Shown here: one piece after another, positions 2,815-55,202 of the stretch | Layout: each line of letters opens with the position of its first letter | Position numbering within the stretch: the first letter of the stretch is position 1 | Virus record (IMG/VR): IMGVR_UViG_3300035152_000033 | Location: 15,980-79,979 of that record | Length of the DNA stretch: 64,000 nucleotides | Strand: one strand, 5' to 3' | Source of the DNA: a virus | Taxonomy: Duplodnaviria; Caudoviricetes | Notes under the pieces: generated by a model | The model's input: only the letters and a program-made list of their open reading frames with translations | Database searches by the model: none | What the model was told of the DNA's origin: nothing | Translations under genes and position numbers: made by a program

Positions 2815-2914
2815 ATAACAATAGAGAGTACTATTAAAGCACTCTCTATTTTGAGTAGAAGTTGTCTTATCAGATTTCTATATATACACTATTGTAGTGA
2901 GCTTAGCAGTTATC
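2815..2914 (-). ncRNA. Candidate sRNA, about 100 nt
   Basis: TTGACA-N17-TATGTT at 2921-2949, no ORF, ends in a 12-bp hairpin at 2820-2850. Confidence 0.4.
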
Positions 2915-2945
2915 TTTTACAACATAACATAATTTACAAAAACTG

Positions 2946-3290
2946 TCAAGCTCCTGAAGGTATTTGATAAGCCATTACATAACTCCCAGCCGTACAAGAC
3001 ACCTCCGTAAATCTACCCGCCAACATCTGACCTTTATTTAATACCTGAGAAGCCACAGAACTATTACCAGTTACCGTAATATTAGAATCCTCAACAGCAT
3101 ACACCACACAAAACTTATATCCACTATCAGGAGTCATATTACTTGCAGGATTCACCAATCTTTTAAAACCATAATAACCAGACATAGCTCTTTCAATAAC
3201 CAACTTATTATAGCCAATAATATTTAAGGCTCTGATATCTTTTAAATCTTCCTCACTCAAACTAATAACACTGTTATCAAAATTAAGCAT
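2946..3290 (-). CDS. Hypothetical protein, possibly virion-associated
   Basis: 114-aa ORF adjacent to the LamG-like gene; beta-rich C-terminus. Confidence 0.5.
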   Translation of the reverse strand: MLNFDNSVISLSEEDLKDIRALNIIGYNKLVIERAMSGYYGFKRLVNPASNMTPDSGYKFCVVYAVEDSNITVTGNSSVASQVLNKGQMLAGRFTEVSCTAGSYVMAYQIPSGA

Positions 3291-4148
3291 TTAAACACCT
3301 CCATTTTTTAAATCTGTATACTTACTATAAACATCTGCATTAAAAACATAAACACTTTTTATATGCCCATTAAAATAAGTAGAATGACTAGTAGGATTTT
3401 TTCTGCCTCCTATAGAAACATTATCAACATTAACCAGAGTAGCATCAAACAAAGCACTTGATTCACTACCATTAGCATTTAATTTTAACCCATCAGCCAC
3501 AAGAGTATCCCAAAAAATCATATCTTGACTAGGCTCCCCATTAGCGGCAATAAGTCTCTCATTCCCATGCCACCAAGCACTAACACTAGTACCATCATTT
3601 AAAATAGAATATTGTGCATCATCAGAACCAACACCATTTTTACAAAACACAAAGCCTACATGAGAGCTGGCCCTTTTATAATTTGCATATAAAACTAATT
3701 TAGGAGCTATTATATCTAAAGCTGAATAATTATCTATCACTAATACATCATCAGTACCATCATATAATAAACCCTCAGTGACAATAGCACCAGCATTCAC
3801 AATTTTAGGCATATAATTAAAATCTTCTTGATAAGCGTATTTACTGTTATCATTTTGCAAATAAACCCTTTTAATAAATGTATCGACTCCACCACACCAG
3901 GATAAAATAGAAGCCGTATCTAATACCCCATTCTTAAAAGTAAATTCTTCCTCAGCTAAATCCCCTGACCTTACACACCTAATAATAGGTCCTGTAAAAC
4001 TACTTACAACCTGAGTATAAGGATTAAAAATTAATATAGCATTCTCACTAATACCTAAAACATCAAATAATAAAGGTATCACTGCATTTTCAAGTAAAGT
4101 ATAAGTTGAACTAAAACCTAAACCAAAGCCTAAACGTCTCACACTCAA
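3291..4148 (-). CDS. LamG/concanavalin-like domain protein, possibly virion decoration or receptor binding
   Basis: Motifs LLYDGTDDVL and SIGGR...YFNGHIKSVYVFN typical of LamG-like jelly rolls. Confidence 0.6.
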   Translation of the reverse strand: MSVRRLGFGLGFSSTYTLLENAVIPLLFDVLGISENAILIFNPYTQVVSSFTGPIIRCVRSGDLAEEEFTFKNGVLDTASILSWCGGVDTFIKRVYLQNDNSKYAYQEDFNYMPKIVNAGAIVTEGLLYDGTDDVLVIDNYSALDIIAPKLVLYANYKRASSHVGFVFCKNGVGSDDAQYSILNDGTSVSAWWHGNERLIAANGEPSQDMIFWDTLVADGLKLNANGSESSALFDATLVNVDNVSIGGRKNPTSHSTYFNGHIKSVYVFNADVYSKYTDLKNGGV

Positions 4149-4197
4149 ATCACCACCTAACTATATTGTATAGTATATCATAAAAAGACAAAAAAAC

Positions 4198-4224
4198 AGG
4201 ATTAGGGAACACAACCCTAATCCT
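4198..4224 (-). terminator. Intrinsic terminator
   Basis: AGGATTAGGG-loop-CCCTAATCCT followed by GTTTTTTT. Confidence 0.75.
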
Positions 4225-4683
4225 TATCAAAACCAACCATTACCCACTCTTTTTCATCTATCTCACATCTTTTTACTTTAGCATGATATTCACTAGCACT
4301 AAGCTCCTCCCTAGTGAATATATTCCGATAAAACATTAACTACACCACCTTATTTAAAAATCTTTTATCCTCAGTACATCTAAATCCTAAAAACTTCTCT
4401 AAAAGATAAATACTTTCAGCATTTTCCCGAGAAATATGATCAGCTATAGCATATAAAAACCAAAACATTTCTCTAAACTCCTGAAAATCCTCCATATCCA
4501 TAACAGCATAAGGACATATACCACAATCCTCATTAATACGATTAATTTTTTTATAAGCAATTACACCTAATTTAGCCATTTACTCCTCCTCTTCATCCTG
4601 AACACAGCCATTAAAATATGTACATTCTACCTGTTGAGTAGCTGCGTTAATCCGACCCCAAGGACATGATCTACAATTTCTCA

Positions 4684-5223
4684 TCAATTACACCTCGCAT
4701 TATAAACCTCATCTAATAAGGTATTCTTAGTGTCTTTTAAACTATGCAATACTTCTTTTTTATTAGGTAGTTTATCAATAATAGGTTTATATTGATTCAA
4801 ATAAGCGATCTTCTCATCATTTGATAAACTACTAAACTCTTCACGAGTTAAAGGTTTTAATTTTTTATTTTTCTCAACTTCAATATCCCTATATTGAGAA
4901 AATTCTTTCTCAAAAACAATACTCTTATCCTCCTCAGCTTCCTCAACAACTTCCTTTACAATCGAGGGAATATGAGGAGTTAAATCCATTTCCGTAGGAG
5001 CCTCAGTTGGATCACTGGGAACCATATTAAATCTCGTCATTAATCCATAAGTTAATATATCTATAGACTCCAACCTTTTTTTATTTTTATTTAAAGAAAT
5101 ACTTAACTTTCTAACATCTCTCACCATACTTTTTAGATGTTTATAAACCAACAAAAACAAAACACCTAAAGTAATAACTACTCCTACTATAAACATTCCC
5201 GCCGCCAATAAGATATTAAACAT
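4684..5223 (-). CDS. Membrane-anchored hypothetical protein
   Basis: N-terminal transmembrane helix followed by a charged domain. Confidence 0.6.
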   Translation of the reverse strand: MFNILLAAGMFIVGVVITLGVLFLLVYKHLKSMVRDVRKLSISLNKNKKRLESIDILTYGLMTRFNMVPSDPTEAPTEMDLTPHIPSIVKEVVEEAEEDKSIVFEKEFSQYRDIEVEKNKKLKPLTREEFSSLSNDEKIAYLNQYKPIIDKLPNKKEVLHSLKDTKNTLLDEVYNARCN

Positions 5224-5243
5224 AATATAATCCTCCCTTTAAT

Positions 5244-5666
5244 TTAATGGCCCAGGACCTCGATATCAACATCAAAGTCCACAACCCCACTATCAAAGCT
5301 TACAGCTTCAAATTTCCAAGTAACACCTTTTTTAAGTCTTCCTGAATAAGCTGCAGCCTCACCAATTTTATTTTTATCCTTATCATACAAGGATACTATT
5401 ACTTCTATACCTTTAATATTTACATCAGAAGTATTTTTTATAAGCCCTGTTATATTATAACCATTATCGGTCTCAGTCATAACTAAATCATTAACACTTA
5501 AGGAATCCTCTATAGGCTCTAACCCCACATTAATATCTTGCTTCTCAGCATCTACATTACCTAAAGCATCCAAATCAACAAGTAAACTAATAAAACCATG
5601 TAGAGCCAGAGCAATTAAACCCAAAAGCAATACTACTATACAACCACCCATTAATAGTCTTTTCAT
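5244..5666 (-). CDS. Membrane-anchored Ig-like (FxLYD-type) protein
   Basis: N-terminal TM; ITGLIKNTS...VIVSLYDKDKNKIG...LKKGVTWKF matches the FxLYD pattern. Confidence 0.7.
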   Translation of the reverse strand: MKRLLMGGCIVVLLLGLIALALHGFISLLVDLDALGNVDAEKQDINVGLEPIEDSLSVNDLVMTETDNGYNITGLIKNTSDVNIKGIEVIVSLYDKDKNKIGEAAAYSGRLKKGVTWKFEAVSFDSGVVDFDVDIEVLGH

Positions 5667-5675
5667 AAGGCCCTC

Positions 5676-7033: not shown

Positions 7034-7094
7034 TCATTTTAAATTTTCCTCAAATAAAAATAACAGGATATAAAAATACACCCTGTCACTCTCC

Positions 7095-7301
7095 TTATTT
7101 CTTTATCTGAATAACTTCCGACACTCTTTGATATTTTTTACGCAAAATAAAACCACTTATACTAATTAATATAATGGATAAACATATTAATACAGGTATA
7201 AATGGATTACCGTTATGATGTATTGTTTTATACACATCTCTTAAAAATATTATAAGTATAAGACCTAAAACAACACTTAGTATAATACTTAATACTTTCA
7301 T
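7095..7301 (-). CDS. Small two-TM membrane protein
   Basis: 68 aa, two hydrophobic helices, basic C-terminus, RBS AGGAGG. Confidence 0.6.
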   Translation of the reverse strand: MKVLSIILSVVLGLILIIFLRDVYKTIHHNGNPFIPVLICLSIILISISGFILRKKYQRVSEVIQIKK

Positions 7302-7321: not shown

Positions 7322-7435
7322 ATAATGGAGCCAATAGATGAGGATATTGGCCCCTATAAGATAAATTAATTTAAAGGAGAATCACTTTTCCAATGACTCT
7401 TCACCTCATCACTTAAGTACTTTATTTTGAATCTG
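7322..7435 (-). ncRNA. Candidate antisense sRNA or leader, complementary to class I leaders and RBS
   Basis: Driven by the promoter at 7442-7470. Contains TCTCCTTTAAATTAATTTATCTTAT between two hairpins; this is the reverse complement of ATAAGATAAA...AAGGAGA. Confidence 0.6.
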
Positions 7436-7441: not shown

Positions 7442-7470
7442 ATTATATCCCTAAATGATACATATGTCAA
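7442..7470 (-). promoter_or_regulatory. Class I promoter
   Basis: TTGACATATGTATCATTTAGGGA-TATAAT: consensus hexamers, 17-bp spacer. Confidence 0.85.
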
Positions 7471-9919: not shown

Positions 9920-12775
9920 TTATTTTATTAACTTCCCCTTATCAGCACATCTAGGACAAAAATCAATACTTAAAGATTTATCTAAAAAGTTTACAGGAAT
10001 AGTTTTCCCACACTCCACACAAGAAGGTCTAAAAAAATCAGCCTGTATATCCTTAAAAGAAACAAAACTATCAACTCTTAAAATATTATGCTTATAAGCC
10101 TCACCAAAAACCTTATTAAATAAAGCATTATATACCTCAAAAGGAGAGGCCTTGCCTTTAACAAATAGTTTAAGTTTTACCTCTAATCCCTCTCTCACAG
10201 CCCATATATCACTAACAAAATCCTTAGCATTACATTCAATAACATTAAGACCAGCCCTATAAATCATCTCTCTAATTTTCATAGTAACCTTTTCAGCTTT
10301 ATGCCAATAATTAAGGGCATTAATAACAGACATTTCTGTTTTATCCGTATCTATTTGATATAAAGAGTATCCTTTTTGTTTCTTTAAACTTTCCATAGAA
10401 GATGGTACTTTAATACCATCTAAAAGCTCAATACCAAAATGAGTTAATTCTTTATTCATCTCACTTATTAAGACTCTTAAATCTTTCTCATTTTTAATAT
10501 ACTTTTCTAGCAAACCAAATTCTATATAATCAATACCATATAACCAATTCTTAAATTTAATATTATCAGATACAAACCTAATACTTCTTTTAGTAATAGG
10601 TATATCAGCCTTCCAAGCGGCTCGCCTAATTAAACATTTCCAGTAAACATTTTCTACACACTTATATTTTTTATGTATACAAACTTTTAATCTTACTTTT
10701 TCTCTTATAGTTGATTCATCCTTACGCTTTAAAGATGATAAATCTTTAAAACTAATATCTTTCTCTCTAGCCTTATAAGAATCCTGGACCTTTTTTGCTT
10801 CTACAGGACTACAAGCCCCACAAGTACTACAACCATGTAGACACTTTTTAACAAGAAAACCATTTTTATTAGGCCCTCTATGATCTTCTCCTAACTCTGT
10901 ATTAAGCATAAAATCACAAGACTTTTTATACAACCCATAAATATAATCTTTAGTTACTCCTATATCAATATGATCCCAACCAAAAATATAATCCCAAGGT
11001 TTTTCTTTAAAATAATACTCATAAGACACTCCATATTTCTGCAGGTTTTTTTCTAAAGTTTCTTTCATTCTACTATCCACAGCTCCTATATAAGCTGCGT
11101 CCAATTCATCATAAGAATCCACCAGAGCATAACCCCCAAGCCTATCACATAAATGAGCTACTTGAGTACTCCACAAATAATCCTCTTTTGTTTTTTTCCC
11201 TAAAGTAAATTCTATACCTAAGTCTCTTATTTTTTGAAAGATACCAGCTAATCGCTTTTCTCCTACAGTAGCCCTATGCCATTGGAAAGGAGTCCAGGAT
11301 TCAATTAATAAAGGTGTAAAAGAAACCCTCACACCTATAGAAGACCCCATAGAAGTCTTTAAATCCATAATTTTTTTACACAACTCTAAAAAATCTTCTA
11401 TATCTTTATCGGACTCAAAAGGCAAGTTAGCAATCATATATAATTTTAACTTTTTATAACCGCCCCTAATTGTATTTTCACAAGCTTTTAAAATAACTTC
11501 CTCAGTGGCACCTTTATTGACAAAAGTCCTTAATCTTTCTGAGCTTCCTTCTACTCCAACAGCCAACTGATTCATGCCACCCTCACCAGATATTAAAGAA
11601 AAATTAGCGTCCTCAGCCATACTATCAATCCTCTGAGACTGAGAATCAAAGGTGTCAGACACTTCCTCTAGAATAGTCTTAGTTAATAAATTCTTTTGAG
11701 TATATCCCGTATACTCAAAAGCCGTTGGGAAAGCATAAATAGAACCAGAGTTTTTAATATTAGCCTTTAAAGCTTTGACCATATAAGGAATAGACCTTTC
11801 CCTATAAGGCCTATATCGATACCCTACAGCACAAAAGGAACAGTTACCAGCATTACAACCCCTTGCTAATTCAACCTCACCTAAACCCATCTCAGGAAAA
11901 ATCCAAGGTACTGGAGGGGCATCCACACAAGGCACATTATTTAAATCCTTAACAAATCTTTTTTTAATCTTCTTAGGTATATCATCATATTTAGCCTCAA
12001 AACACTCTATTTTAAGCTCATTATTCACCTTTTTATATTTAGGGTATAAAAACTTAGGCATATATAAGAAATCATATTCTTTAGCTAAAAAATGCAGTAA
12101 TTCTTCACGTCCTTCTTTAGTATAATAAAAACTCTCAGCTTCCTTTTTAAAAGAGTTAATATCTTCTAATACAGCCATTAAACCAGGAGACCCTTTTTCA
12201 TCCTCAGCCTCTCCAATAAACATAAAGTCTACTATAGGACTCCAAATCTCAGGACTCCCAAAAGTCGAACCTCCTGAAATAATCAAAGGATAATTTTCTT
12301 TCATTTCTTCTCTGTCTTTCCATCTTACGGGAATACCCGACATCTTTAACACTTTAACTACATTAGCTAAAAATGGGGGAAATCCTAAAGAAAACCCTAC
12401 CACATCAAACTCACCCATAGGCTTCTTAGACTCCAAACCAAACATAGGAATCCCCTCAAAGTATCTTAATTCTTTATAACTAATAGGCATAAAAGACCTT
12501 TCAGCTTTAAAAGGTCTTATACCATCCGATCTCCTATACTCATTAATCAATTTATATAATAAAGGTCCTCCTTGATTACCAACAAAATCTCTATAGCCCC
12601 AAGGATTTGCTATTAAAAATTTAAGCTCAGCAGAATCCCATTCTTTATAAAATAAACCTTTTCCCCATTCTCCATAAGTATTACACTCACAACCTAAAAA
12701 AGCCTCAGGCATTTCCATTTTAGGCATAATCGAAGTTAAAAAATTTTCTATTTGTATTTTCGTCATTTCCACCAT
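9920..12775 (-). CDS. Radical SAM protein (TIGR03960-like) fused to a radical-SAM-linked domain (TIGR03936/DUF2344-like) and a C-terminal zinc ribbon
   Basis: FGLESKKPMGEFDVVGFSL, ARGCNAGNCSFC cluster motif, GVEGSSERLR, LKLYMIANLPFE, WTPFQW, CLHGCSTCGAC, then IRRAAWKADIPI, and CVEC...CPRC. Confidence 0.8.
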   Translation of the reverse strand: MVEMTKIQIENFLTSIMPKMEMPEAFLGCECNTYGEWGKGLFYKEWDSAELKFLIANPWGYRDFVGNQGGPLLYKLINEYRRSDGIRPFKAERSFMPISYKELRYFEGIPMFGLESKKPMGEFDVVGFSLGFPPFLANVVKVLKMSGIPVRWKDREEMKENYPLIISGGSTFGSPEIWSPIVDFMFIGEAEDEKGSPGLMAVLEDINSFKKEAESFYYTKEGREELLHFLAKEYDFLYMPKFLYPKYKKVNNELKIECFEAKYDDIPKKIKKRFVKDLNNVPCVDAPPVPWIFPEMGLGEVELARGCNAGNCSFCAVGYRYRPYRERSIPYMVKALKANIKNSGSIYAFPTAFEYTGYTQKNLLTKTILEEVSDTFDSQSQRIDSMAEDANFSLISGEGGMNQLAVGVEGSSERLRTFVNKGATEEVILKACENTIRGGYKKLKLYMIANLPFESDKDIEDFLELCKKIMDLKTSMGSSIGVRVSFTPLLIESWTPFQWHRATVGEKRLAGIFQKIRDLGIEFTLGKKTKEDYLWSTQVAHLCDRLGGYALVDSYDELDAAYIGAVDSRMKETLEKNLQKYGVSYEYYFKEKPWDYIFGWDHIDIGVTKDYIYGLYKKSCDFMLNTELGEDHRGPNKNGFLVKKCLHGCSTCGACSPVEAKKVQDSYKAREKDISFKDLSSLKRKDESTIREKVRLKVCIHKKYKCVENVYWKCLIRRAAWKADIPITKRSIRFVSDNIKFKNWLYGIDYIEFGLLEKYIKNEKDLRVLISEMNKELTHFGIELLDGIKVPSSMESLKKQKGYSLYQIDTDKTEMSVINALNYWHKAEKVTMKIREMIYRAGLNVIECNAKDFVSDIWAVREGLEVKLKLFVKGKASPFEVYNALFNKVFGEAYKHNILRVDSFVSFKDIQADFFRPSCVECGKTIPVNFLDKSLSIDFCPRCADKGKLIK

Positions 12776-12799: not shown

Positions 12800-12862
12800 A
12801 AAAGCCCCTGATAAATAGATTGGCAATATCAGAGACTTTTTATTAAATTAATGAATACCACT
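12800..12862 (-). promoter_or_regulatory. Attenuator-like leader of the radical SAM gene
   Basis: TTTACG-N17-TACAAT at 12869-12897, then hairpin AAAGTCTCTGATA / 13-nt loop / TATCAGGGGCTTT plus U-tract, then the RBS. Confidence 0.55.
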
Positions 12863-13285
12863 TTCTTTATTGTACCGTAAATTTATTGTATCGTAAAATC
12901 AGTTAAAAATCAATCTCATTTTTCCAACAAGGTAAAGCAGACACATGGGCATCCCATGCCACACCAAAACACACCTTTTCTTTTAAACATGTTACGGTAT
13001 ACTCAATCTTACCACTTAAGATTGAATGTGCTTTACTAAAATCCTTAGCATAATCACAATACCAGCATTTAAACATTTTAGGATTTGCATCCGTATAACT
13101 TTTATTATTCATAGCAATCTTATGAGCTTTATTTAGCTTAGAAGAATACTCTAAAATATCTTTCTTATTAATATCCTTAGAAGATTCAATATTAACTATC
13201 TTTCTCTTATCATAGAGCTTACACCAATCAATATACTCTAATAATGTAAGCCCTCTTTCAATATCTTTTTCCTTTAATAAATTAA

Positions 13286-13678
13286 TCATGATAAAACCTT
13301 CAATCTGGTATAATCATAATCTAAAAGATTACAAAACTCTTTCAATGAAGAATCTGACAGTCTATGAGTACCAGACTCCACCTTAGCATAAGTACTAAGA
13401 GACATACCTAAAGCTTTAGCAATCTCTCTTTGTGTCCATCCTCGCCAAACTCTTACTTTACGTAAAGTACTAAAGCTCTTGTCGCTCACTGCACTTAACC
13501 TCTTATAAGGTTTATATACTTTTTTAGTCTTTCTTTTTTCATAAGCATCCGTAGCCCATTCTAAAAAAACGTCAACCACTTCATCCACACTTAAAGGGTT
13601 CTCCTCAGCCACCTTTTTTAATTTTTCTAAAGTGGAATTTTTTATTAAAAATCTACAAGTACTACGCAAAACTTTCAC
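13286..13678 (-). CDS. XRE-family HTH transcriptional regulator
   Basis: LRKVRVWRGWTQREIAKALGMSLSTYAKVESG; the N-terminus looks ribbon-helix-helix-like. Confidence 0.85.
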   Translation of the reverse strand: MKVLRSTCRFLIKNSTLEKLKKVAEENPLSVDEVVDVFLEWATDAYEKRKTKKVYKPYKRLSAVSDKSFSTLRKVRVWRGWTQREIAKALGMSLSTYAKVESGTHRLSDSSLKEFCNLLDYDYTRLKVLS

Positions 13679-13900
13679 TCCTTTCTATTATCCTATTTAG
13701 GACATATAAATTTTTACTACTTTTATAGTCAGTCTATACATATAAAGCCAGATAAAGAAAATACCTAAAATCAACCAACGTCTACAGCTATAATCTCTCT
13801 CATATATAACATATATCATATGAGACCCTGCTATTAAAAGAACCCACAAACTATAAAACATTCCAATTAAAGTCCAAACCAAATATAAACACCTCCTAAA

Positions 13901-13933
13901 ATTATACCTACAAAAAACCAAAAAAGCATGTAC
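13901..13933 (-). promoter_or_regulatory. Class II promoter
   Basis: GTACA-N22-TATAAT. Confidence 0.7.
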
Positions 13934-14002
13934 ACATAAAAATAAAATAAGCCCCTGAAAAAGGAGCTTACTTCTTAAAAGGCATAATATGTAGTAAATT
14001 AC

Positions 14003-15230: not shown

Positions 15231-15308
15231 ATTAAAGCCCTTTAAAAAATAAAGAGCTTTAAACAAATATATTAAACTACACAGCAACAATAATAATAAA
15301 TAACTTCT
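15231..15308 (-). promoter_or_regulatory. Leader with terminator-like hairpin in front of the methyltransferase
   Basis: TTTACA-N17-TATACT at 15315-15343; hairpin AAAGCTCTTTA...TAAAGGGCTTT just before the RBS. Confidence 0.45.
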
Positions 15309-15346
15309 ATATTGAGTATAGCATAAGGCTATACAGATGTAAACAT

Positions 15347-15409
15347 TAAAATAAGCCCCATACAGAGCTTATTTTAAAGTCAATAACAGTTCCATTATGA
15401 AAAAACTAT
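15347..15409 (-). ncRNA. Candidate sRNA, about 60 nt
   Basis: TTGACT-N17-TATAAT at 15416-15444, no ORF, terminator AAAATAAGCTCT-GTAT-GGGGCTTATTTT. Confidence 0.45.
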
Positions 15410-15657
15410 ACAACTATTATAAAATACCATTTTACTTTAGTCAATCTTTAATATCCCCATGTTCTAAACTCTTAACCATATCCTCATGATCTTCTATAGT
15501 TTTTATACCTTTAAGTATACTTATTATTATTTTGGCTATAAACTTCACTAACCAAATACCAGCCACTACATCCAAAAATATAAGAGAATAAAACACAAAC
15601 ATCAAATAATTATTAACCAACTCATAAATTTCATTTAACCTGCTCATACTTTCACCT

Positions 15658-17817: not shown

Positions 17818-17846
17818 ATTATATAATAAGACTTGACATATGTCAA
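17818..17846 (-). promoter_or_regulatory. Class I promoter with perfect palindrome
   Basis: CTTGACATATGTCAAG, TTGACA-N17-TATAAT, leader ATAAGATAAA. Confidence 0.9.
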
Positions 17847-17864
17847 GCATTAAGCTAAAAATTT

Positions 17865-18107: not shown

Positions 18108-18124
18108 CTCCTACATTATTAGCC

Positions 18125-18967
18125 CTAAGAGGCTAATAATGCTTTTCTTCCAGTATAGAATTTTACTACACTAGCTTCTACCTCAGCGGTATACATCAAG
18201 GATTCAAACCATTTATCTTGGTTTGGTCTTTTAGCTACAACTTTTTTAGCCCTAGCCCCTCTTTCCACTAAACCCTGAGTTAGTAGCAACCAGTTCACTA
18301 TTTTTTCAAACTCTACAGTACCACTATGATGACGAAACTCAATAGTACCGTAAACAGCATAACTGGTTACATTTAATTTTCTATATCTAGCTCTATAAGT
18401 GTCAGTAAATACCTCAAGTAAGGCACTAACTGTACTTTTAGAATCGATTAAATCAAATTTTGATTTTAAATTCATGCCTGATAAAGAATAAACATCTGAG
18501 AAGTTTAAGCAATATAGATTAGCATTGCCTTTTCTTGAGCGAGGCATAAAATTATCAATTTCATCCTCAAACTTTAAGTATGCTTTAGTTAGTGTTTTCC
18601 AACTATCTAAAGTATAGTCTACAATCTCATGATGTATATGTAAACCACAAGACTTATTAACAGTGGCTCCTATGGTATCTAATACAGCACATACAGCCTT
18701 TAGCTGATTAACGCCATCTTTACCAGATAACGGTGGCGACACTAATTCGTAGCCTTTAAAATTAACTGTTTTAATTGATTCCTCAGGCTTTATAGAACAG
18801 TCAGTTACAACTTTCCAACAGTTGTTTAATACTTCATGTGTATACCCAGCATATATACAAGGAATACCCTCAGCCATTAAAATATCGGCCACATTTCTGC
18901 CTGTATATTGCTGAGGCACTAACATCTCTATCTCAATACCAAACTTTCTATCAGTTAATTTTTTCAT
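18125..18967 (-). CDS. Putative amidoligase (COOH-NH2 ligase type 2)
   Basis: FGIEIEM, WKVVTDCSI, ELVSPPL, SCGLHIH, RYRKLN, TIEFRHH. Confidence 0.88.
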   Translation of the reverse strand: MKKLTDRKFGIEIEMLVPQQYTGRNVADILMAEGIPCIYAGYTHEVLNNCWKVVTDCSIKPEESIKTVNFKGYELVSPPLSGKDGVNQLKAVCAVLDTIGATVNKSCGLHIHHEIVDYTLDSWKTLTKAYLKFEDEIDNFMPRSRKGNANLYCLNFSDVYSLSGMNLKSKFDLIDSKSTVSALLEVFTDTYRARYRKLNVTSYAVYGTIEFRHHSGTVEFEKIVNWLLLTQGLVERGARAKKVVAKRPNQDKWFESLMYTAEVEASVVKFYTGRKALLAS

Positions 18968-19788: not shown

Positions 19789-20208
19789 GGATTATTTAAA
19801 TATATTCTTTAAAACTACAGTTCTGACATACACCCTCATAATGCTTTATAACTCCACACTTAGGACACTTTAAAAGAGCCTCAGCAGAATCATCTTTTTT
19901 AAACTTCTCTATAAATCTTTTATATCTGGCTTCTAATATAGAGGTCTTATCTTTTCTATTAAAATAAGCCTCCAACACTATATAAAGATCAGCCATCTCA
20001 GCTTCCCATTTATCGCTAACTTTTAAATACTTATATTCATGATCGTATAAAAAAGAAACTTCTCGAACATGATCCATAATACCCAGCTTATTAAAATACT
20101 CCTTAGCATATATTTTAGCTATCTCAGTAACATATTGAAACTTTTCAAACATAAATATTCCTCCAAACGAAATAAAGGCAACCTATCAAAAGGCTGCCCC
20201 ATTCAAAT

Positions 20209-21432
20209 TTAATTAGGTGTTCTATTAATTATAAACTTCCACTTGCTCCAATAGTTATTATATTGATAATCTCGACATGTTAAGTAAATAACATTATCTC
20301 CATTATGCAAATTACTTATAATCACACTAGCCCTATCATCATTAGCAGGGTTTTCCTCATACTCATGCAAACCTAGATAACAACCTGAATAATTAGTCTG
20401 AATAGATTTATCTGCAGTAATAGGATTGCTATTATTTTGTCTCTTATACATAACAGTGGTTGATTTACTTTGATTCTTCACAGCCACGCCCCACTGATTA
20501 CCAGCAGAATGCGAACCTACTTCTACCACACGAGCATCCTTAAAAGTTAAGGTATACTTATATTTTGGTGTAGGTAAAGGCTCAGAATCAGCATCAACCA
20601 TTCCATAGGACCTAACTAAGTTATTATCAACAAAACTATCCCACAAATCATAAGTTATATATCCATAACCTGCATAACCATAAGCAGAACCCCAACTATT
20701 AATAAATTTAAAAGCAGCTTTACTATTATCATAACCAACAACACAAAGAGCATGGCCTCCACCACCTCCATTATATACATCATAGAAACCAGTATAAAAG
20801 TCATCAGTAACAGGAATTGTAATAGTACAACAATCAGTCTGCAAATAAGTTTTTAAATTATCTGTTTTAGTGGCATTAAACCCAGTATCATAAAGAAAAC
20901 CCCAAGACTCTGCTTTAAAATTCTTAGCTTCGTTTAATTGAGTGCTATTAGGTTGATTTGTATAATTACTAGCGGTATAAGGCATAGTTGATAATCTACA
21001 ATCACCTAAATTCATCATTAACTCATATGCATCACTAGAATAAGCCCCATCATCAGCCCCTATAACTATTTGATTATAAATAAATGAAGGACTAAACATT
21101 ATATTTCCCCAGAACATATCTTTCTTTTCCTGATATCCTTTATAGTAACTTGTTGCCCAACCAACACAACTCCCTTGCTGCCCTTGATCGCCTACAGGCG
21201 GCATATCAGAACTATGATCTACTACAGAAGGCAAAGAAACTTTACCTTTATTAGACAAATTAACTTTAGGCTCTCCTTGAATATCCTTTTCTAATTTAGC
21301 TCCTAGCTTATACTTACTAAATTCACCTTTAATATCCTCTTTAGCAAACACATTACCCATACTAACAACTAATGTCATGGCTATAACTAAAGCCATTAAC
21401 ACATAAGACAACTTTTTAAAATTAATCCTCAT
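20209..21432 (-). CDS. Secreted papain-like (C1A) cysteine peptidase
   Basis: Signal peptide ending VFA, PPVGDQGQQGSCVGWA (Gln/Cys), GGHALCVVGYD (His), FINSWG (Asn), Pro linker and C-terminal beta domain. Confidence 0.92.
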   Translation of the reverse strand: MRINFKKLSYVLMALVIAMTLVVSMGNVFAKEDIKGEFSKYKLGAKLEKDIQGEPKVNLSNKGKVSLPSVVDHSSDMPPVGDQGQQGSCVGWATSYYKGYQEKKDMFWGNIMFSPSFIYNQIVIGADDGAYSSDAYELMMNLGDCRLSTMPYTASNYTNQPNSTQLNEAKNFKAESWGFLYDTGFNATKTDNLKTYLQTDCCTITIPVTDDFYTGFYDVYNGGGGGHALCVVGYDNSKAAFKFINSWGSAYGYAGYGYITYDLWDSFVDNNLVRSYGMVDADSEPLPTPKYKYTLTFKDARVVEVGSHSAGNQWGVAVKNQSKSTTVMYKRQNNSNPITADKSIQTNYSGCYLGLHEYEENPANDDRASVIISNLHNGDNVIYLTCRDYQYNNYWSKWKFIINRTPN

Positions 21433-21858
21433 AATTTCTCTCCTCTTTAATTATTTTCTACAATCCCTACATGTTTTGGTTTTCTCATCCCAGCATTTAG
21501 GACAAACCAATTTATCACAAGTAGGGCAATACACCATATCTTTTTTTGTATACATATTAACACATAAATCACAGTTACACATGTAACTATAACGAGTACC
21601 TGGCTCCTCCATTATAAAAACCTCCTCATAGATAAAAGGGAGATTATATCTCCCTCATTTTACTTACTTTTTTTATATTTATCTCTTCTTTTATTATGAT
21701 AATCTTTCACTTTTTGATTACCAGGCTTTGTCACATCACAAGGACAATCTTTTCCAGGAGGTAACCCACAAACAGGGCCACCTTTTAAAGTCTCTTGATA
21801 CCAATCACAGCCTATCTGAGTACACCTTTTCGATATCTCAGTCATAAAAAACCTCCTC

Positions 21859-22111: not shown

Positions 22112-22140
22112 ATTCTATAATATTCCTTGACATATGTCAA
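22112..22140 (-). promoter_or_regulatory. Class I promoter with perfect palindrome
   Basis: CTTGACATATGTCAAG...TAGAAT, leader TAAGATAAATTAA. Confidence 0.88.
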
Positions 22141-24101
22141 GCTTTTATTTAAAATAATTTATAGATATTAGACTGTTTATAAAAACATTCAAACTTAATA
22201 TCATCTAAACTTATTCTAAATTGCATTCCATTTTTACAGATAAGCATTTCATTAGAATCATTAAAAGTAACTGAGTAATAATTTCCTTCTTTATCAGTAC
22301 CCCTATATAATCCATCATCCTCATAAGCTTTATTTATAGCCTGTACTAAATGCATTTAATCACTCCTTACAGCTCTTACATTTTTTAGTTCTGCTATCCC
22401 AACAGTCATCACAAACATTATGCAAACAAGGGTAACAATAGTTACCCTTTTCATTTTCTTTCAATATGATAAGCTTTTTGCAACAACCACAATGCACCAT
22501 AACTCCAGCACAATTATAACTGTTAACACTGAAAAAAGAAGGCTCTTTCTTTTTCCCAAACATTTAAAACAACTCCTACCCTTTTATTTATTCACACTGT
22601 TAAAAGAAACATTGCAAATTTCATTTTCCCCAGGTGTGATAATAAACACTCCACCAGTTAAGCCATTATTTAGCCACTTAATACCATCACATATAGCAGC
22701 ATGATTAACATCATTAAAAACTACTTTATACTCATACAAATCTCCAAAACTCAAAAGATATACAGGCTTATCCCCATATAAATCTTTATCTACATCAACA
22801 GTACATAAAACATTTTTAGTTTCAAATATGCTGATATCATCCTCATATTTCACACAAACACGCATAATTCTCAGCCTCCTTCCTCAGCTGCATTTATTAC
22901 ATAACCCATTAGAATAACAGTTCATACAAACCATATTTCCGCATTTAGTACAGGTATAAAGCCTAAATACATAGGCTCCACAACCAGCACAAACTAACAC
23001 ACCAGTCATAACTTATCCCTCCTAAGAACTATCTAATTTCTGTAGTCTCCCAAATAGCATTACACTTATTACATTGATTATGAATAACAACTTTCTTTTG
23101 TACCTTACCAGCTACAATAATTCTTTCTGTAGATTTAATAGCTGATATTTTATGTCTGCTATCACAATTACACTCTTTCATAAATAAACATATCCTCCCT
23201 TTACAAGTTTTATACTAAATTCATTATGACATTTATAACAGATGGAATCATAAAACACATCTCCACCTCTATAAACAGAAACAACAAATTGATTACTGTT
23301 ACATTTAAGACACTTAGGCTCCTCCATAAGAACCTCCTATAAATTTTCTAAAAAAGCAGCTAACACCATTAGCCAGCCACTTACACGATTTATAATTTTC
23401 ATTAAACAACCTCCATATATTAACCTTTATTATAATCCCATTCATGACCGCATTTAGTACATTTCAAAGGAATAGAATCAACTGGTCCAACAGGAGCAGT
23501 GAAATAAACTTTTTCTCCACACATAGGACAAAACGCAACTGAAATAGCCATAAAACACACCACCTTTCCTTTAAAAATTACCTTTCTCATCACAGCTAAC
23601 AATAAACTCCTGTTGACATTTAATACATACAACTTTAATATGCCAACCATCAAACATCTTTACAGGCTCAGCACCTATAGCAACTACTAAGGTACCACCA
23701 CAGCCCACTACTCTACATACTTCCATTTCTTAGCTTCCTCTCTAATTTTCAGCAAATAAATCAAGACCCAAAAGCTCACCATCTCTTTTACTTTTATCAC
23801 AATAATCCCTATACTTACCCTCTATTCTACCAAAGACTACAGTAACAGCATGATGCAACTTAGTTTTATTTAAATAGTTATCTAAATAAATAACCCAAAT
23901 TTCACTATCAAAAGTAGCCTCTAATAAATCAAGAGTAGAATCATCAATAAGCTTTTCACTTATTAAAACATTCATTTTATCATTGAACTTAAACACATAA
24001 GCATAAGTTGACTTTTTAGCTTTAAGCCAACTAGATAAAATAACATGCCTTACTAAGCCTTTACTACTATTTTTAAGCTCTCTCATAATATCACCTCAGA
24101 T

Positions 24102-33337: not shown

Positions 33338-33349
33338 CTACTTTAAATA

Positions 33350-33638: not shown

Positions 33639-33655
33639 AAAAAAAGTATAACACA

Positions 33656-34003
33656 TTAAATCATACCATGCAACTGACAACGAATTTTAATATCACAAGG
33701 ATTAGCCCCAATATTTTTAGCTACTAATCTAAAAGAATAACCTTGCGGGCCTCCGTTACGATAAGTGGTATATTGACCAAAGGCCGCACTCATAGGAACA
33801 TTAAAAGGCATATTAGGCACATCCTCAACAAGTTCCGAATCTCTTCTTTGAAAATCCACTTCTATATCCTCAGTATTAGTGATCATCATTAGAACATCTC
33901 TAACGAATTGAATATCATTAAACCAACCAGATTTAACAACACCGCCAACATTAAGCCCAGCTACATCAATAACCAGACCCTTATCAATATAATTTGTATC
34001 CAT
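33656..34003 (-). CDS. Hypothetical beta-rich protein
   Basis: Likely start MDTNY after RBS GGAGG. Confidence 0.55.
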   Translation of the reverse strand: MDTNYIDKGLVIDVAGLNVGGVVKSGWFNDIQFVRDVLMMITNTEDIEVDFQRRDSELVEDVPNMPFNVPMSAAFGQYTTYRNGGPQGYSFRLVAKNIGANPCDIKIRCQLHGMI

Positions 34004-34060
34004 AAAATACCTCCAAAATATTAGTATATTTTCATAATAGCATAATATTTTTACTAACAC

Positions 34061-34158
34061 AAAAAATAGAAGCTAAAAGCTTCTATTGTATTTATGGTGT
34101 AATCCTCTATATAAATCCGTAAACTTATTTATAGGAAGGAATGACTAAAAGTATTTAT
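34061..34158 (-). ncRNA. Candidate sRNA, about 95 nt
   Basis: TTGACT-N17-TATAAT at 34165-34193, no ORF, terminator AATAGAAGC/GCTTCTATT-TTTT. Confidence 0.5.
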
Positions 34159-34189
34159 AAACACATTATACTTTAGTCATTCCCCAAAG

Positions 34190-34603
34190 TCAAACTTTCT
34201 TCTCAATAATGATTTTAACTTTATAGGACTCATCCGATACCAGATCACAACTAAATAAATCTTTTAATTTATTTAAAGCCTGGCCATCCACCCCAGGATA
34301 TTCCCTATAATTCTCTATCTCATAAAGCACATCATTTAAAACATCCAACTCCGCATAAGATAGAATAGTTTCCTCAGGCTCCAAAGAACCATCAAGCCAA
34401 AAATATCCCTTTACTTCAATATAAGTTTGGTCTTTTAAATTTACTAACTTCATTAATATGGCTTTTAAATGAGTCATATTCATAACATCAGGCCCCACTT
34501 TAGAGCTTACTATAGTATTACATTGCATATAAGTAGCCATAAGCCCAGACTTAGACCTGATATAATATTCCACACTATAATTATACATCTTTTCCATTCT
34601 CAT
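34190..34603 (-). CDS. Hypothetical protein, paralog of the adjacent gene
   Basis: Shares SKVGPD...L.A.L..L.NLK..TYI.V with 34600-34854. Confidence 0.6.
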   Translation of the reverse strand: MRMEKMYNYSVEYYIRSKSGLMATYMQCNTIVSSKVGPDVMNMTHLKAILMKLVNLKDQTYIEVKGYFWLDGSLEPEETILSYAELDVLNDVLYEIENYREYPGVDGQALNKLKDLFSCDLVSDESYKVKIIIEKKV

Positions 34604-34854
34604 TCCTCCACTAAAAATACTTTTTGAACCACAATATAAGTACCCTCTTTTAAATTTAATAAGCTTTCTAAAACAGCCTCAAGATAACTAAAAGACACCT
34701 CATCAGGCCCAACTTTAGATTGGATTGTATCTGCAGATAAAACTTTAGTATTTATAAAATCTGACTCTATAGTATATTTAACCACATAATCATAAAATTT
34801 ATCCACTTTCATTCCTCCCATAAACCTATTTTTTATCTGTCTTAACCACTCCAA
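34600..34854 (-). CDS. Hypothetical protein, paralog of the adjacent gene
   Basis: See 34190-34603. Confidence 0.55.
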   Translation of the reverse strand: MEWLRQIKNRFMGGMKVDKFYDYVVKYTIESDFINTKVLSADTIQSKVGPDEVSFSYLEAVLESLLNLKEGTYIVVQKVFLVEE

Positions 34855-36805
34855 TTATATAATCTCTCAGCATATACACAGAGCCTTTAATCATTGTATT
34901 ATTGCCAAAAGACACTAGCCATACAGCAAAAGCAATTAACCAACCTACTTTAAAACCTAAAATAATTAAACCCACAAGCCAAAAAATAAAACCTATATAA
35001 TTATACTTATTATATTTCATTTCTGATCCTTCCTTTTCTTGGAGCAATCTCCGCAAACAATAAAACTAAACTCTATATCCTTATTACAATCTTGGCACTT
35101 ATGACCTACTATTTCCACTCTAGGCTCCTCAGGCTTACCAGTGAAAATCCTTTGCCCTATAAAAGGCTTATAATGCACTTGCCTGGTATCCAATTGCCAT
35201 GCCGTATGAAGCATATTAGGCATGGTACCTTCCTCATGACAAAACCTACACGATATACAAAAAGGAACTACACCGTCTCTAGAGTTCCAAAGAATTTCCA
35301 TAGCTCCGCAAGCCTTACACCTATATAACATAAGGCAATAAGCCTCATTATATATAAATTTTTGTGTCATCCTTCTACCTCCACGATTAACTGATAATCA
35401 TCTAAAGACTTATCAGGCTTTATATTTAATACTCTTTCAAGAGTTCTAAGAACCCATCTTAATTCTCCGTAGATAGCTAAATTAGCCTCTAATTTGGCCT
35501 CATCAAATTGAATTAAATCATATCTATTTTTAGAAGCTTTAAAAGCAATCTGGTCTTTTGCCACATGATAAGCACTTAAGAAATCATCCCTACACTTATA
35601 ATACAAAGTAACCAGGTCCTCTGTCTCCTTAGAGGATAGCACATAATTTCTATTCTTGCATTCTTCTCTTTTTTCCTGAAAATTAATAGCCATTAATAAC
35701 CTCCTATAACACCTTTTTACTACACTCATCACATAAAAATAAATCAAATTTCCTTCTATAACTTATAATAGAGTTACCACACCCATTACTACACATAACC
35801 TTGCATTTTTGTTTACACTTAGTTATACAATAAGTACTTTCATTGTTTTCATATAATGGCAATATGCCTTTTATTTTTAATTTATGCTTGCAATCAATCA
35901 TTAATAACCTCCTTAACCCATAATCATCTTTTTACCCGTAGGACCACATTTAGGGCAATAATTAAACCAGCATCTAAAATCATCAGAGTATATATTCCAC
36001 CAATGATAATCTTTACTGGCTTTAACTGCCTCTTTATGGGTCTTACGCTTTATAAGCAGCCCACAAAGATCACACCTTAACTCATAAAAATTATTAGTAC
36101 TCTTTAAACTCATAACTTGATTCCTTTAAGCACACCCCTATAGGACTATTAGCCTCAGTAGCTAAATGACCATCCTTAAACTTAACTTTTAATTCACCGC
36201 TACCATCAAATTTAGTTATCCAGGCTATACCATTAGCCCCTTGACTCATAGAATTTAAACGAGTAATTTTGCCCTCAATAGTCTTTTCTCCATTACTGAT
36301 TAAAACAATCTGCCCCATAAGAGGATGCTCAGCCAATAAATCATCCACAGGACTATCCAGAAAACTTATAGTATCAGCAGGCACTAGGACCACCTGACCG
36401 ATCATTAATTCTACTATAGCCATAGGGTAAACTCCTTCCATATCAGAAGAACCAGCAGGACAAAAGCCATGAAACCATCCGACCACATCATAGGTATATT
36501 GATTATTAATATACACCTTTTCCACTAAAACCTTTCTAGGTTTCTTACCATCTTTAGTCATCCTTAAACCTCCCAGGTAATTTAATATCATGTATACCAT
36601 TAATTAATCTTAAGGCATACTCTAAGATTTCATCATCAGAAGCATTTACACCATTAAATATCTTTTTAACTTTTTTCAGCTCATACAATGTTTTAACAGA
36701 CACAGACAATAACACCTTTTTATCATTCTTATCATTCATAATAATTATTCCTCCTATACTACACACCCTACACTATAAATAAAATCACTTGTGCTCCTAA
36801 CAGGT

Positions 36806-36838
36806 ATTATACCGCCGAAGGAGCAAAGTTTAATGTTA
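36806..36838 (-). promoter_or_regulatory. Class II promoter
   Basis: TAACA-N22-TATAAT; near-duplicate of 55203-55235. Confidence 0.7.
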
Positions 36839-36864
36839 TTTTAAAAAATTTTTAAACTTTTTTT

Positions 36865-54087: not shown

Positions 54088-54115
54088 AATAAAACAACTC
54101 CTTTCAATTTTAAAT

Positions 54116-54148
54116 ATTATACCTCAAAAATAAATTAAAAGCATGTAC
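54116..54148 (-). promoter_or_regulatory. Class II promoter (polA)
   Basis: GTACA-N22-TATAAT. Confidence 0.7.
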
Positions 54149-54485
54149 AATTTTATTTTTGCATAGCTTCTTTTTTACAATCCTCACATAAATCTTTTCC
54201 TGCAATATAGGACCTCTCAACCCTAGCATTACAATATTTACAAAGGATTTTATTACAAGATTCACATTTAACATATAAATCTTTAAAGTGCAGCCCTTCA
54301 CCACAAGAAGGGCAATACTTATCATATTCAATTTTTTTAGCCATAAATTCCCCCTAACCCATAAGAGAACCGCAACCACGACAAACCCATTTTTTAATAG
54401 ACTCATCCCAATCCCAGTCCCTCATTCTTAAACATTTAATACAATAATTAAATTTAACTGCCATAACTCCCTCCTTAAACGGTAA

Positions 54486-54505
54486 AACCCGCCTTTAAGC
54501 GGGTT
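54486..54505 (-). terminator. Intrinsic terminator
   Basis: AACCCGC-TTAAAG-GCGGGTT followed by TT. Confidence 0.75.
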
Positions 54506-54512
54506 CTTTAGA

Positions 54513-54869
54513 CTATATTTTTATTTCTTTATTAGCGATTTTCGCTAATTGATTACTATATTTTAAAAGTTTTACTCTTAAATTAGCTACTTCCATTCTA
54601 GTCAAGCCTCTTTTGCTTATAACTCTCTCAGCTATTTTAGTCATATATGGAGCGTCATAGGCTGAGAATCCAACTCCATTAGACTCGTTAGTATGCTTAT
54701 AAGCTTTCTCGTCGGCTGTTTGCAGTTTATATAAAGCCACAACACCTTTTAAGACTGCATTTGGATTTCTAAGAAGTAAATTTCTTATCATTTCACCTGA
54801 CCATACCTTACTAGTTTGGTCTTTCTTTAAAACCTTAACATCTTCCTTTAATAATGCAAATCTACTCAT
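54513..54869 (-). CDS. Early phage hypothetical protein
   Basis: LYKLQTADEK...NGVGFSAYDA...KYSNQL; has its own class I promoter and terminator. Confidence 0.7.
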   Translation of the reverse strand: MSRFALLKEDVKVLKKDQTSKVWSGEMIRNLLLRNPNAVLKGVVALYKLQTADEKAYKHTNESNGVGFSAYDAPYMTKIAERVISKRGLTRMEVANLRVKLLKYSNQLAKIANKEIKI

Positions 54870-54913
54870 AATCGAATCCTCCCAAAAAATTTAATAATTT
54901 ATCTTATGTTTAT

Positions 54914-54942
54914 ATAATACCATAGTCCTATACATATGTCAA
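54914..54942 (-). promoter_or_regulatory. Class I promoter
   Basis: TTGACATATGTATAG...TGG-TATTAT, leader ATAAGATAAATTA. Confidence 0.88.
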
Positions 54943-54961
54943 GGAAAACATAAATTTTATA

Positions 54962-55092
54962 AAAAAATAGGTAGAAACTTTTTAAGCTCCTACCACAATC
55001 TTTTAATTTCATATCATTATTTAAGGGAGTTCTACACTGAAATAATTCCAACATCCACCAACTAGATATCCTAAACTATTATCAGGTAAAAA
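54962..55092 (-). ncRNA. Candidate sRNA under a class II promoter
   Basis: TAACA-N22-TATAAT at 55099-55131; contains anti-SD CTCCCTTAAATA; terminator GGTAGGAGCTT/AAGTTTCTACC plus T-tract. Confidence 0.45.
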
Positions 55093-55202
55093 CATTATAT
55101 TATACCTACAAAAGAGTAAAATTTACTGTTATTTTAAAATAAACTTTAAATTATCATCATTACCCCCATGTATATATAAATTTATTTCCGCTCCTAACAG
55201 GT

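Follow-up and report, generated by a model that had tools for sequence, protein, structure and literature searches.

Promoter, leader and predicted terminator-hairpin cassettes at gene junctions of an uncultured Caudoviricetes phage

In phage lambda, the late genes lie downstream of the PR'-tR' region (6S RNA), where a short non-coding transcript runs from a strong promoter to an intrinsic terminator, with Q antitermination; lambda N and Q and HK022 put make RNA polymerase terminator-resistant. We found a like order of promoter, short non-coding stretch and terminator-like hairpin ahead of genes at about a dozen sites in one viral genome, whereas lambda has a single such site. This genome (G000) is a 79,979-bp viral contig (Duplodnaviria; Caudoviricetes; IMG/VR record IMGVR_UViG_3300035152_000033) with an estimated completeness of 90%, and the window that we analysed is the 64,000-nucleotide stretch covering its bases 15980–79979. 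Unlike in lambda, we found no Q-like protein and no element common to the leaders. We consider it probable that the 13 units examined here are composite cassettes of promoter, leader and leaky terminator that double as recombination modules.

A related design is known from T4-type phages as the promoter-early stem-loop (PeSL) cassette, which is also the subject of PMC4122927. As described in the accessible part of the report on them (PMC2839356), PeSLs combine a strong sigma70-like promoter with a stem-loop between a stop codon and a Shine–Dalgarno (SD) sequence; promoter activity and modular shuffling were demonstrated, and the stem-loop is a proposed terminator or attenuator. According to the same part, the stem-loop overlaps or directly flanks the promoter, in five positional classes that all lie around the -35 and -10 elements, and PeSLs go with small accessory open reading frames (ORFs) and with insertion, deletion and replacement junctions (PMC2839356). 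Like PeSLs, the cassettes in the window hold a sigma70-like promoter and a stem-loop in one intergenic stop-to-SD interval, coincide with sites of modular exchange (32520; 15445/15446; 23/32 breakpoints at gene edges) and are built with promoter sequence parts that recur round the genome (family E, about 50 nt). By contrast, the hairpin here would be transcribed, lying 27–104 nt downstream in the leader and directly before the SD, and the leaders and hairpins are unique, with no repeated consensus. Exceptions nearer to PeSLs are the palindromic -35 elements at 17846, 22140 and 29721 and an inverted repeat at the -10 of unit 12. The phage itself differs from the T4-type hosts of PeSLs: it is not T4-like, has a family A polymerase and lacks a cultured relative. 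We lean towards the view that its cassettes are a transcribed-hairpin variant of this known phage regulatory cassette, in a lineage without cultured members.

Leaky terminators within leaders have also been described. In the portions of the reports drawn on here, the Escherichia coli greA leader, which gives GraL (PMC2836576), and Gifsy-1 IsrK (PMC4825925) each have a leaky leader terminator that yields short RNAs together with a read-through mRNA. The GraL and IsrK RNAs were mapped, and the action of IsrK in trans was demonstrated, according to the same portions; the cassettes here, by comparison, are known from sequence only. In phage LUZ7, the consulted part of an ONT-cappable-seq study reports an efficiency below 50% for more than 60% of mapped termination sites, some of them time-dependent, and candidate intergenic small RNAs (sRNAs) that share a transcription start site (TSS) and use alternative terminators (PMC9163698). 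The window resembles LUZ7 in having many hairpin terminators inside co-directional gene arrays, where, in that part of the study, read-through sets downstream expression. It differs in that LUZ7, an N4-like phage of Pseudomonas, has polymerases of its own and was studied experimentally, whereas our evidence is sequence and a three-genome comparison.

Anatomy of the junction cassettes

A sequence-only reading of the window had proposed about a dozen independent ORF-free transcription units, each running from a near-consensus promoter to a terminal hairpin, and had interpreted them as a network of sRNAs and attenuators. The 13 units are minus-strand intergenic regions that extend from the -35 hexamer (high coordinate) to the end of the hairpin tail (low coordinate). 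Their features are listed below, with folding free energies (dG), U-tract tail scores (tail), z values against shuffles, untranslated regions (UTRs) and differences from a related genome, G002.

2921–2949, minus: unit 1 promoter, TTGACA-17-TATGTT with TG; TGA of the upstream ORF inside the -35; -10 differs in G002 (2/12 hexamer mismatches)
2820–2850, minus: unit 1 hairpin, dG -16.9, tail 2.91 (moderate); 31/31 identical in G002
2781–2809, minus: possible second promoter downstream of unit 1, then ATG 2755
7442–7470, minus: unit 2 promoter, 12/12, family E (CCTTGACATATGT); stop codon in -35; mismatches 0/12 in hexamers vs 3/17 in spacer
7327–7354, minus: unit 2 hairpin, dG -13.8, tail 1.72; 25 nt from ATG 7301, adjoining SD AGGAGG
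12869–12913, minus: unit 3 promoters, two 9/12 matches that fall within a tandem duplication of 16 nt (TTTACGATACAATAAA / TTTACGGTACAATAAA, 12869–12900) that doubles a -10-like element; single copy in G002
12803–12841, minus: unit 3 hairpin and UUUUACUUU; 27 nt from ATG 12775 of a 951-aa radical-SAM protein
15315–15343, minus: unit 4 promoter, TTTACA-17-TATACT with TG
15232–15262, minus: unit 4 hairpin, 15 nt from SD-led ATG 15216 of a DNA methyltransferase
15416–15444, minus: unit 5 promoter, TTGACT-17-TATAAT (11/12); stop codon in -35; mosaic junction at 15445
15342–15381, minus: unit 5 terminator, with A-tract, hairpin and U-tract; unit 4 promoter directly downstream; RNA of about 68 nt predicted, z -5.28
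24945–24973, minus: unit 6 promoter, 12/12; stop codon in -35; mismatches 0/12 in hexamers vs 4/17 in spacer
24867–24893, minus: unit 6 hairpin, dG -15.6, tail 2.72; 22 nt from ATG 24844
25309–25343, minus: unit 7 promoter, second family (AAGGTATAAT)
25239–25268, minus: unit 7 terminator, U6, tail 4.48; 14 nt from ATG 25224
25908–25936, minus: unit 8 promoter, family E -35 with a TGg-TAATCT -10
25786–25821, minus: unit 8 hairpin, 16 bp, dG -17.5; 40 nt from ATG 25745 of a 129-aa L7Ae-like protein
32497–32525, minus: unit 9 promoter, TTGACT-17-TAGTAT with TG; recombination junction with G002 at 32520
32381–32444, minus: unit 9 hairpin, long and AU-rich, ahead of SD and ATG 32363
33479–33508, minus: unit 10 promoter, TTGACA-18-TATATT with TG; in G002 spacer largely replaced (7/18), hexamers 1/12
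33197–33472, minus: structured 5′ UTR, 282 nt, of the gene at 32861–33196; z -2.39 for the whole UTR
33645–33673, minus: unit 11 promoter, TTGCAT-17-TATACT with TG
33521–33546, minus: unit 11 terminator, tail 4.31; unit 10 promoter downstream; RNA of about 118 nt predicted
34165–34193, minus: unit 12 promoter, TTGACT-17-TATAAT (11/12); stop codon in -35
34065–34087, minus: unit 12 terminator, U6, tail 4.84; downstream, a possible extended -10 promoter and ATG 34003; RNA of about 94 nt predicted
55099–55133, minus: unit 13 promoter, second family (TAACAG...GGTATAAT); second copy at 55203–55237
54970–54994, minus: unit 13 terminator, tail 3.57, then the family E promoter 54914–54942 of the gene at 54513–54869
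29311–29400, minus: additional promoter-then-hairpin junction, absent from the sequence-only reading; TTGCCA-17-TATAAT, hairpin 29311–29344

Two arrangements recur. In the first (units 2, 3, 4, 6, 7, 8 and 9), the promoter, leader and hairpin are followed by a strong SD and a start codon, the hairpin standing at the distances listed above or, in unit 9, ending about 20 nt before the start as read from the sequence. In the second (units 1, 5, 11, 12 and 13), the promoter, leader and terminator are followed by a second promoter and then the gene. By this layout, units of the first arrangement are the 5′ leaders of the next genes and not stand-alone transcription units. The proposal of independent units thus mostly fails: seven are leaders of adjacent genes, and unit 10 (33350–33508), whose own fold is not significant, is the first 116 nt of the 282-nt 5′ UTR. 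The ORF-free character of the units was borne out. The only SD-led ORFs of at least six codons were four weak candidates of 9–12 codons with poor SDs, none a credible leader peptide, and the sole ORF of at least 40 amino acids in a unit (54899–55054, unit 13) is broken in both relatives, a different 1-nt deletion shifting the frame in each of G001 and G002. The gap that holds unit 13 (54870–55232) comprises 363 ORF-free nucleotides with two tandem second-family promoters and one common terminator, which would give nested RNAs of about 225 and about 122 nt; the first of these promoters recurs, together with its initial transcribed region, as a 50-nt copy at 36793–36842.

At six junctions, including those of units 1, 2, 5, 6 and 12, a TGA stop codon lies inside a TTGAC(A/T) -35 element (ORF ends at 2946, 7467, 15441, 24970, 29718 and 34190; matching -35 starts at 2949, 7470, 15444, 24973, 29721 and 34193). 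The promoter is thereby fused to the previous gene, whose transcripts must cross the leader to reach the hairpin. Sixteen intergenic hairpins (dG of -9 or below) end no more than 45 nt from an SD-led start. A scored promoter lies 25–130 nt upstream of five of them, or of seven when units 3 and 8, which the thresholds missed, are counted; the remaining sites directly follow a stop codon and leave no space for a promoter before the next gene. The hairpin before the SD is a genome-wide design that includes about ten promoter-less junctions. Genes downstream of these are expressible by read-through only, so that the hairpins must be leaky or bypassed. Several conventional junctions, with a terminator and then a promoter, are also present.

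Selection on promoter hexamers and minus-strand pairing

We scored sigma70/sigmaA-type promoters as TTGACA and TATAAT hexamers 16–18 nt apart, or by an extended -10 TGn. Units 2 and 6 carry a perfect TTGACA-17-TATAAT (12/12), units 5 and 12 match at 11/12, unit 10 at 11/12 with TG, and units 1 and 4 at 10/12 with TG. For these seven units the description as near-consensus promoters stood. Units 8, 9 and 11 are weaker (9/12 with an extended -10 TG), the unit 3 promoter is weak (two overlapping 9/12 matches), and units 7 and 13 carry promoters of a second family that is not of the sigma70 type (GGTATAAT, no TTGACA). Over the whole 79,979-bp genome, 12/12 matches occurred six times on the minus strand, always in intergenic sequence, and never on the plus strand, and matches of at least 11/12 numbered 16 on the minus versus 4 on the plus strand. 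Total counts of weak promoter-like sites were not above those of shuffles, so only the top matches carry weight. A hairpin with a dG of -9 or below was present 25–130 nt downstream of 11 of the 43 minus-strand promoters scoring at least 10/12 (7/22 of the intergenic ones), compared with 1 of 39 on the plus strand.

Comparison with relatives revealed selection on these elements. The relative G002 (88,665 bp, with terminal repeats and scored complete) is 79–95% identical to the window across aligned blocks and 93% identical over all aligned bases; a second relative, G001 (61,040 bp, 91–99.6% identity), spans only parts of the window. The comparative results rest on these two genomes, and the main counts set the window against G002. 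Across 18 aligned promoters, mismatches numbered 4/216 in the hexamers versus 42/307 in the spacers (Fisher p = 5e-7), and the 10 unit promoters alone gave 3/120 and 21/171. Selection therefore acts on the hexamers but not on the spacers, as predicted for functional promoters.

Family E promoters, which are of an early type, have about 50 nt in common (cCTTGACATATGTaAAG...TATAAT...CATAAGATAAA), and nine members other than those in the units have ordinary leaders of 30–45 nt. At 17818–17848, 22112–22142 and 29693–29723 (minus strand), the family E -35 lies inside a perfect 16-bp palindrome, CTTGACATATGTCAAG, which also yields plus-strand promoter-like sites of 10–11/12 at 17833–17862, 22127–22155 and 29708–29737; this palindrome could serve as an operator or as an antisense promoter firing divergently. 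In unit 12, an imperfect inverted repeat of 15–16 bp (GGAATGACTAAAGTA / TACTTTTAGTCATTCC, 34140–34190) brackets the -10 and the predicted start and looks like an operator or a PeSL-style stem-loop.

The second family combines GGTATAAT with a TAACA(G/T) or GTACAT box about 21 nt upstream, without TTGACA. Its motif occurred 19 times on the minus strand (14 intergenic) and twice on the plus strand, mostly 15–29 nt ahead of the starts of replication genes (first bases on the minus strand at 60725, 55210, 55106, 54123, 51533, 45669, 36813, 29296, 25316, 24109, 13908 and 9865), which suggests a phage-directed middle class of promoters. At four junctions (29310–29344, 13885–13974, 54110–54153 and 60697–60753) we observed a repeated cassette in which a second-family promoter and an SD come after the 3′ half of a terminator hairpin (AAATTGTACATGCTTTTTT). 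A 130-aa ORF at 13286–13678, kept in G002, gave a weak match to sigma70 region 4, a helix-turn-helix (E 2e-4, below the cut-off), and is a candidate transcription factor for one promoter class. The sigma70 region 2 domain (Sigma70_r2) was not found in G000 or G002. Neither genome matched a T7-type RNA polymerase domain, a result that is uninformative because the RNA_pol profile matched no control genome either.

The hairpins are likewise non-random. Terminator-like sites outnumbered the shuffle expectation in three 20-kb scans (19 vs 5.7, 18 vs 5.8 and 12 vs 6.2), and 12 of the 13 predicted unit RNAs folded better than dinucleotide shuffles (z -2.26 to -5.28), the unit 10 RNA being no better than its shuffles (z +0.58). 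Hairpins begin 27–104 nt past the -10, and the predicted lengths from TSS to hairpin end are 60–123 nt. Graded by the d'Aubenton-Carafa tail score in 11 unit hairpins (all except units 9 and 10), U-tracts were strong in units 5, 7, 11, 12 and 13 (3.57–4.84), moderate in units 1, 3, 4 and 6 (2.72–3.18) and weak in units 2 and 8 (1.47–1.72). The proposed terminal hairpins were thus recovered as folds everywhere but in unit 10, and only five of the 11 scored carry a strong U-tract.

Pairing within the hairpins is also under selection. In intergenic hairpins, 27/1062 stem positions (2.5%) differed from G002, compared with 19/289 loop positions (6.6%). Eighteen of the 27 changed pairs still pair on the minus strand (11 of them via G-U only), whereas nine would on the plus strand, and the changes that break a pair are mostly at terminal pairs. 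In genic control hairpins, 35 changes kept pairing and 41 broke it. Among the units, the unit 3 hairpin has a U-G to C-G change in G001 and G002; all three substitutions in the unit 6 hairpin of G002 preserve the base pairs, in two cases for the minus strand alone; unit 11 shows two wobble-preserving changes plus loop changes; and unit 12 is changed at the loop and the loop-closing pair only. On this comparison, the hairpins act as minus-strand RNA whose pairing has been kept in evolution. We conclude that the sequence features are real and conserved and do not arise by chance, with reservations about units 3, 10 and 13.

One possible explanation for such hairpins is that they are elements of RNA processing or stability, namely RNase III, Y or E sites, structures that protect the 3′ end of the upstream mRNA, and structures that protect or insulate the downstream SD at the 5′ side. 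This would agree with the weak or moderate U-tracts of units 1, 2, 6 and 8 and of several promoter-less junctions (for example, tail scores of 0.05 at 18113–18142 and 0.32 at 54484–54507), with the constant position of hairpins 3–12 nt upstream of the SD, with long stems (16 bp in unit 8, and 17–18 bp at 58105–58142 and 7053–7096) and with a gene replacement in G002, described below, that keeps leader and hairpin with the downstream gene. However, nine of the 11 scored unit hairpins have moderate to good U-tracts, several with an upstream A-tract, which is the signature of intrinsic terminators, and most stems are 10–13 bp, below classical RNase III substrates. We consider this explanation unlikely.

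Conservation and exchange of cassettes

The transcribed parts of 12 units were identical to G002 at 1126 of 1184 positions, compared with 1936 of 2145 third codon positions in the downstream genes (p = 5e-7); the upstream genes gave 1906/2221. We do not favour an origin of the leaders as decaying remnants of deleted ORFs ('empty cassettes'), given that conservation is higher in the transcribed parts than at third codon positions, although this does not extend to unit 8 (leader 74/86 identical, with a variable middle) or unit 3, both of which appear unconstrained. The transcribed parts of units 4 and 5 together are 157/157 identical. These two units lie in an approximately 97%-identical block that takes in the methyltransferase gene and stops exactly at 15445, and we dropped the idea that their extreme conservation is special, as it is part of that block.

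A whole cassette has been exchanged at a promoter. Unit 9 and its genes (31637–32519) are missing from G002, which has a non-homologous cassette of the same design instead. The replacement begins inside the common -35 and spacer at 32520, with the same -35 and a new -10, and continues with a leader of about 100 nt and two hairpins, the second G+C-containing with a U-rich tail, followed by AGGAGG and the ATG of a different gene, whose N-terminus we take to be Bro-N/antirepressor-like. In a comparison with four DNA runs, contigs from other runs break at 15445/15446, and in one contig the middle of the unit 8 leader is replaced. Overall, 23 of 32 breakpoints in the alignment of the window with G002 fall at gene edges or between genes, compared with a background of 16%. 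The unit 9 replacement and these breakpoints indicate that leader and hairpin travel with the downstream gene and that promoters are recombination seams.

Separately, a 407-aa peptidase-like gene (20209–21432) lies in an insertion (20194–21451) that neither G002 nor a contig of another run contains, and the left junction of this insertion is inside a hairpin at 20175–20200.

Proposed leaky control at gene junctions and its alternatives

In the scheme that we favour, the phage would use the host RNA polymerase at sigma70/sigmaA-type promoters, with units 7 and 13 representing a second, phage-specific type. Each cassette starts with a promoter abutting the upstream gene and continues with a unique ORF-free leader of 27–104 nt and a terminator-like RNA hairpin. 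The hairpins would serve as leaky intrinsic terminators and insulators, ending or attenuating transcripts from both the upstream gene and the cassette's own promoter, and would supply upstream mRNAs with a protective 3′ hairpin. Read-through RNA would be the mRNA of the next gene, and RNAs of 60–125 nt would be terminated by-products; in the second arrangement, the promoter after the hairpin would serve the next gene. The cassettes are also seams for gene swaps between related phages. Our analysis demonstrates the anatomy, the selection on hexamers and on minus-strand pairing, and the exchange of a cassette at a promoter, and we infer the termination efficiency, the read-through and the existence of short RNAs. 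A strong promoter with a terminator-like hairpin 60–120 nt further on should give some short terminated RNA, in other words constitutive attenuation, and such RNAs are probably made.

Several points weigh against this scheme. Its TSSs, termination and read-through are sequence predictions. Strong U-tracts are confined to five of the 11 scored hairpins and two are weak, and some hairpins may be stability or processing elements and not terminators. The leaders show roughly twofold the conservation of third codon positions nearby, which a pure spacer model cannot account for. Units 4 and 5 sit in a generally low-divergence block, and two genomes were available for comparison. Lastly, five units with a conserved promoter, a good terminator and a separate second promoter would be wasteful if the short RNA had no role.

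Such units raise the alternative that some of the 13 encode stand-alone sRNAs that would act in trans, with mRNAs or proteins of the host or the phage as targets; units 5, 11, 12 and 13 are the strongest candidates and unit 1 a lesser one. The hexamers of units 5, 11 and 12 are intact in G002 (0/12 mismatches each), the terminators of units 5, 11, 12 and 13 are good (tail scores 3.57–4.84), the folds reach z -2.38 to -5.28, the leaders of units 5, 11, 12 and 13 are 34/34, 95/98, 76/77 and 100/104 identical to G002, and the candidates are ORF-free; Gifsy-1 IsrK, GraL from the greA leader and the intergenic candidates of LUZ7, as presented in the parts of those reports cited above, would be precedents by analogy. 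However, the Rfam check that the sequence-only reading had named gave no match at the gathering score and two weak matches at E of 5 or less, neither in a unit, and no common motif emerged. When 12 unit RNAs were set against 130-odd phage start regions, the duplexes stayed within the shuffle range (z +1.55 to -2.56; 12 mononucleotide shuffles per RNA, 12 tests, phage start regions only), so that the best of them were not outstanding. Moreover, each terminator is equally explained as that of the upstream gene ahead of the next promoter, and a block effect accounts for part of the conservation seen in unit 5. We regard this alternative as quite unlikely. It would likewise be improbable that at least four units (5, 11, 12 and 13) are dedicated phage genes for terminator-bounded RNAs of 65–125 nt with strong promoters of the host type, acting in trans on host or phage mRNAs or as decoys for RNA-binding proteins, which together with the terminators of the other units would form an unusually dense layer of RNA control for a genome of 80–90 kb. 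From the proposed network of sRNAs and attenuators there remain functional, conserved promoters and RNA hairpins; an Rfam family, a common motif, an antiterminator (leaders folded without the 3′ arm of the terminator gave weak partial pairings only, in 11/11 units tested), a leader peptide and complementarity to phage targets did not materialize.

The hairpins could also form a timing switch, with an early stop at which a later phage factor or a leader RNA element makes the polymerase terminator-resistant and turns the downstream genes on. Many terminator-like hairpins front promoter-less genes, so some bypass is needed; the order of promoter, leader and terminator resembles lambda PR'-tR'; and time-dependent read-through is documented in the consulted part of the LUZ7 study (PMC9163698). 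Nevertheless, the Q-type antiterminator domains PF06530 and PF03589 were absent from G000 and the complete G002 at E of 1 or less, a search that novel antiterminators would escape, and no 8-mer was found in three or more leaders, which means that the leaders have no common nut- or put-like element. Simple leakiness, as in the composite cassettes that we favour, accounts for the same anatomy, and a switch of this kind seems very unlikely to us.

These cassettes sit in a genome with a G+C content of 31% overall (29–35% in the window) and a strong and uniform G-C skew. All credible genes in the window are on the minus strand: a gene caller aware of ribosome-binding sites gave 164 minus-strand candidates versus 13 short plus-strand ones, which overlap minus-strand genes. 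Recognizable genes encode a family A DNA polymerase, a clamp loader, a UvsX-like recombinase, a ligase, a DnaB-like helicase, a PhoH/exonuclease and the large terminase; no tRNA or tmRNA was found by a search for them. The 951-aa protein downstream of unit 3 (9920–12775) has radical-SAM N-terminal and core domains and no PHROG family. Directly 3′ of unit 8, the gene for the 129-aa protein (25356–25745) matches Pfam Ribosomal_L7Ae weakly (E 1.9e-5, marginally above the cut-off), and PHROGs gives its family another name. L7Ae-type proteins bind kink-turn RNA, and the protein beside unit 8 could matter for the leader RNAs.

Searches for further relatives returned little. We found no cultured relative (best polymerase tblastn identity 30%), and megablast of 32000–36000 against GenBank phages gave no match. 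Scans of viral contigs with the clamp loader, and with a 391-aa protein and its 14-sequence alignment, recovered G001 and G002 only; a scan of a single metagenome yielded the source contig of G002 and one 37%-identical fragment; and a scan of a genome collection yielded none. A 17-base promoter motif matched 20 viral stretches, of which only the two known relatives had a blastn match to the genome. A protein search revealed that four or five more genomes of this phage group exist, 87–95% identical in the query protein.

The present evidence does not amount to the discovery of an sRNA network. The loci at which phage small RNAs might be sought are units 5, 11, 12 and 13 and a 459-nt ORF-free region at 33197–33655. 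If the favoured reading is true, this uncultured sediment/wetland phage, which occurs at wetland or salt-marsh sites, shows a clean, modular grammar of gene control, in which the previous stop codon and the promoter are fused, then come a private leader and a leaky terminator set against the next ribosome-binding site, with whole cassettes swapped at the promoter. The idea of mobile cassettes developed for PeSLs would then extend beyond T4-like phages, to a variant with a transcribed stem-loop.

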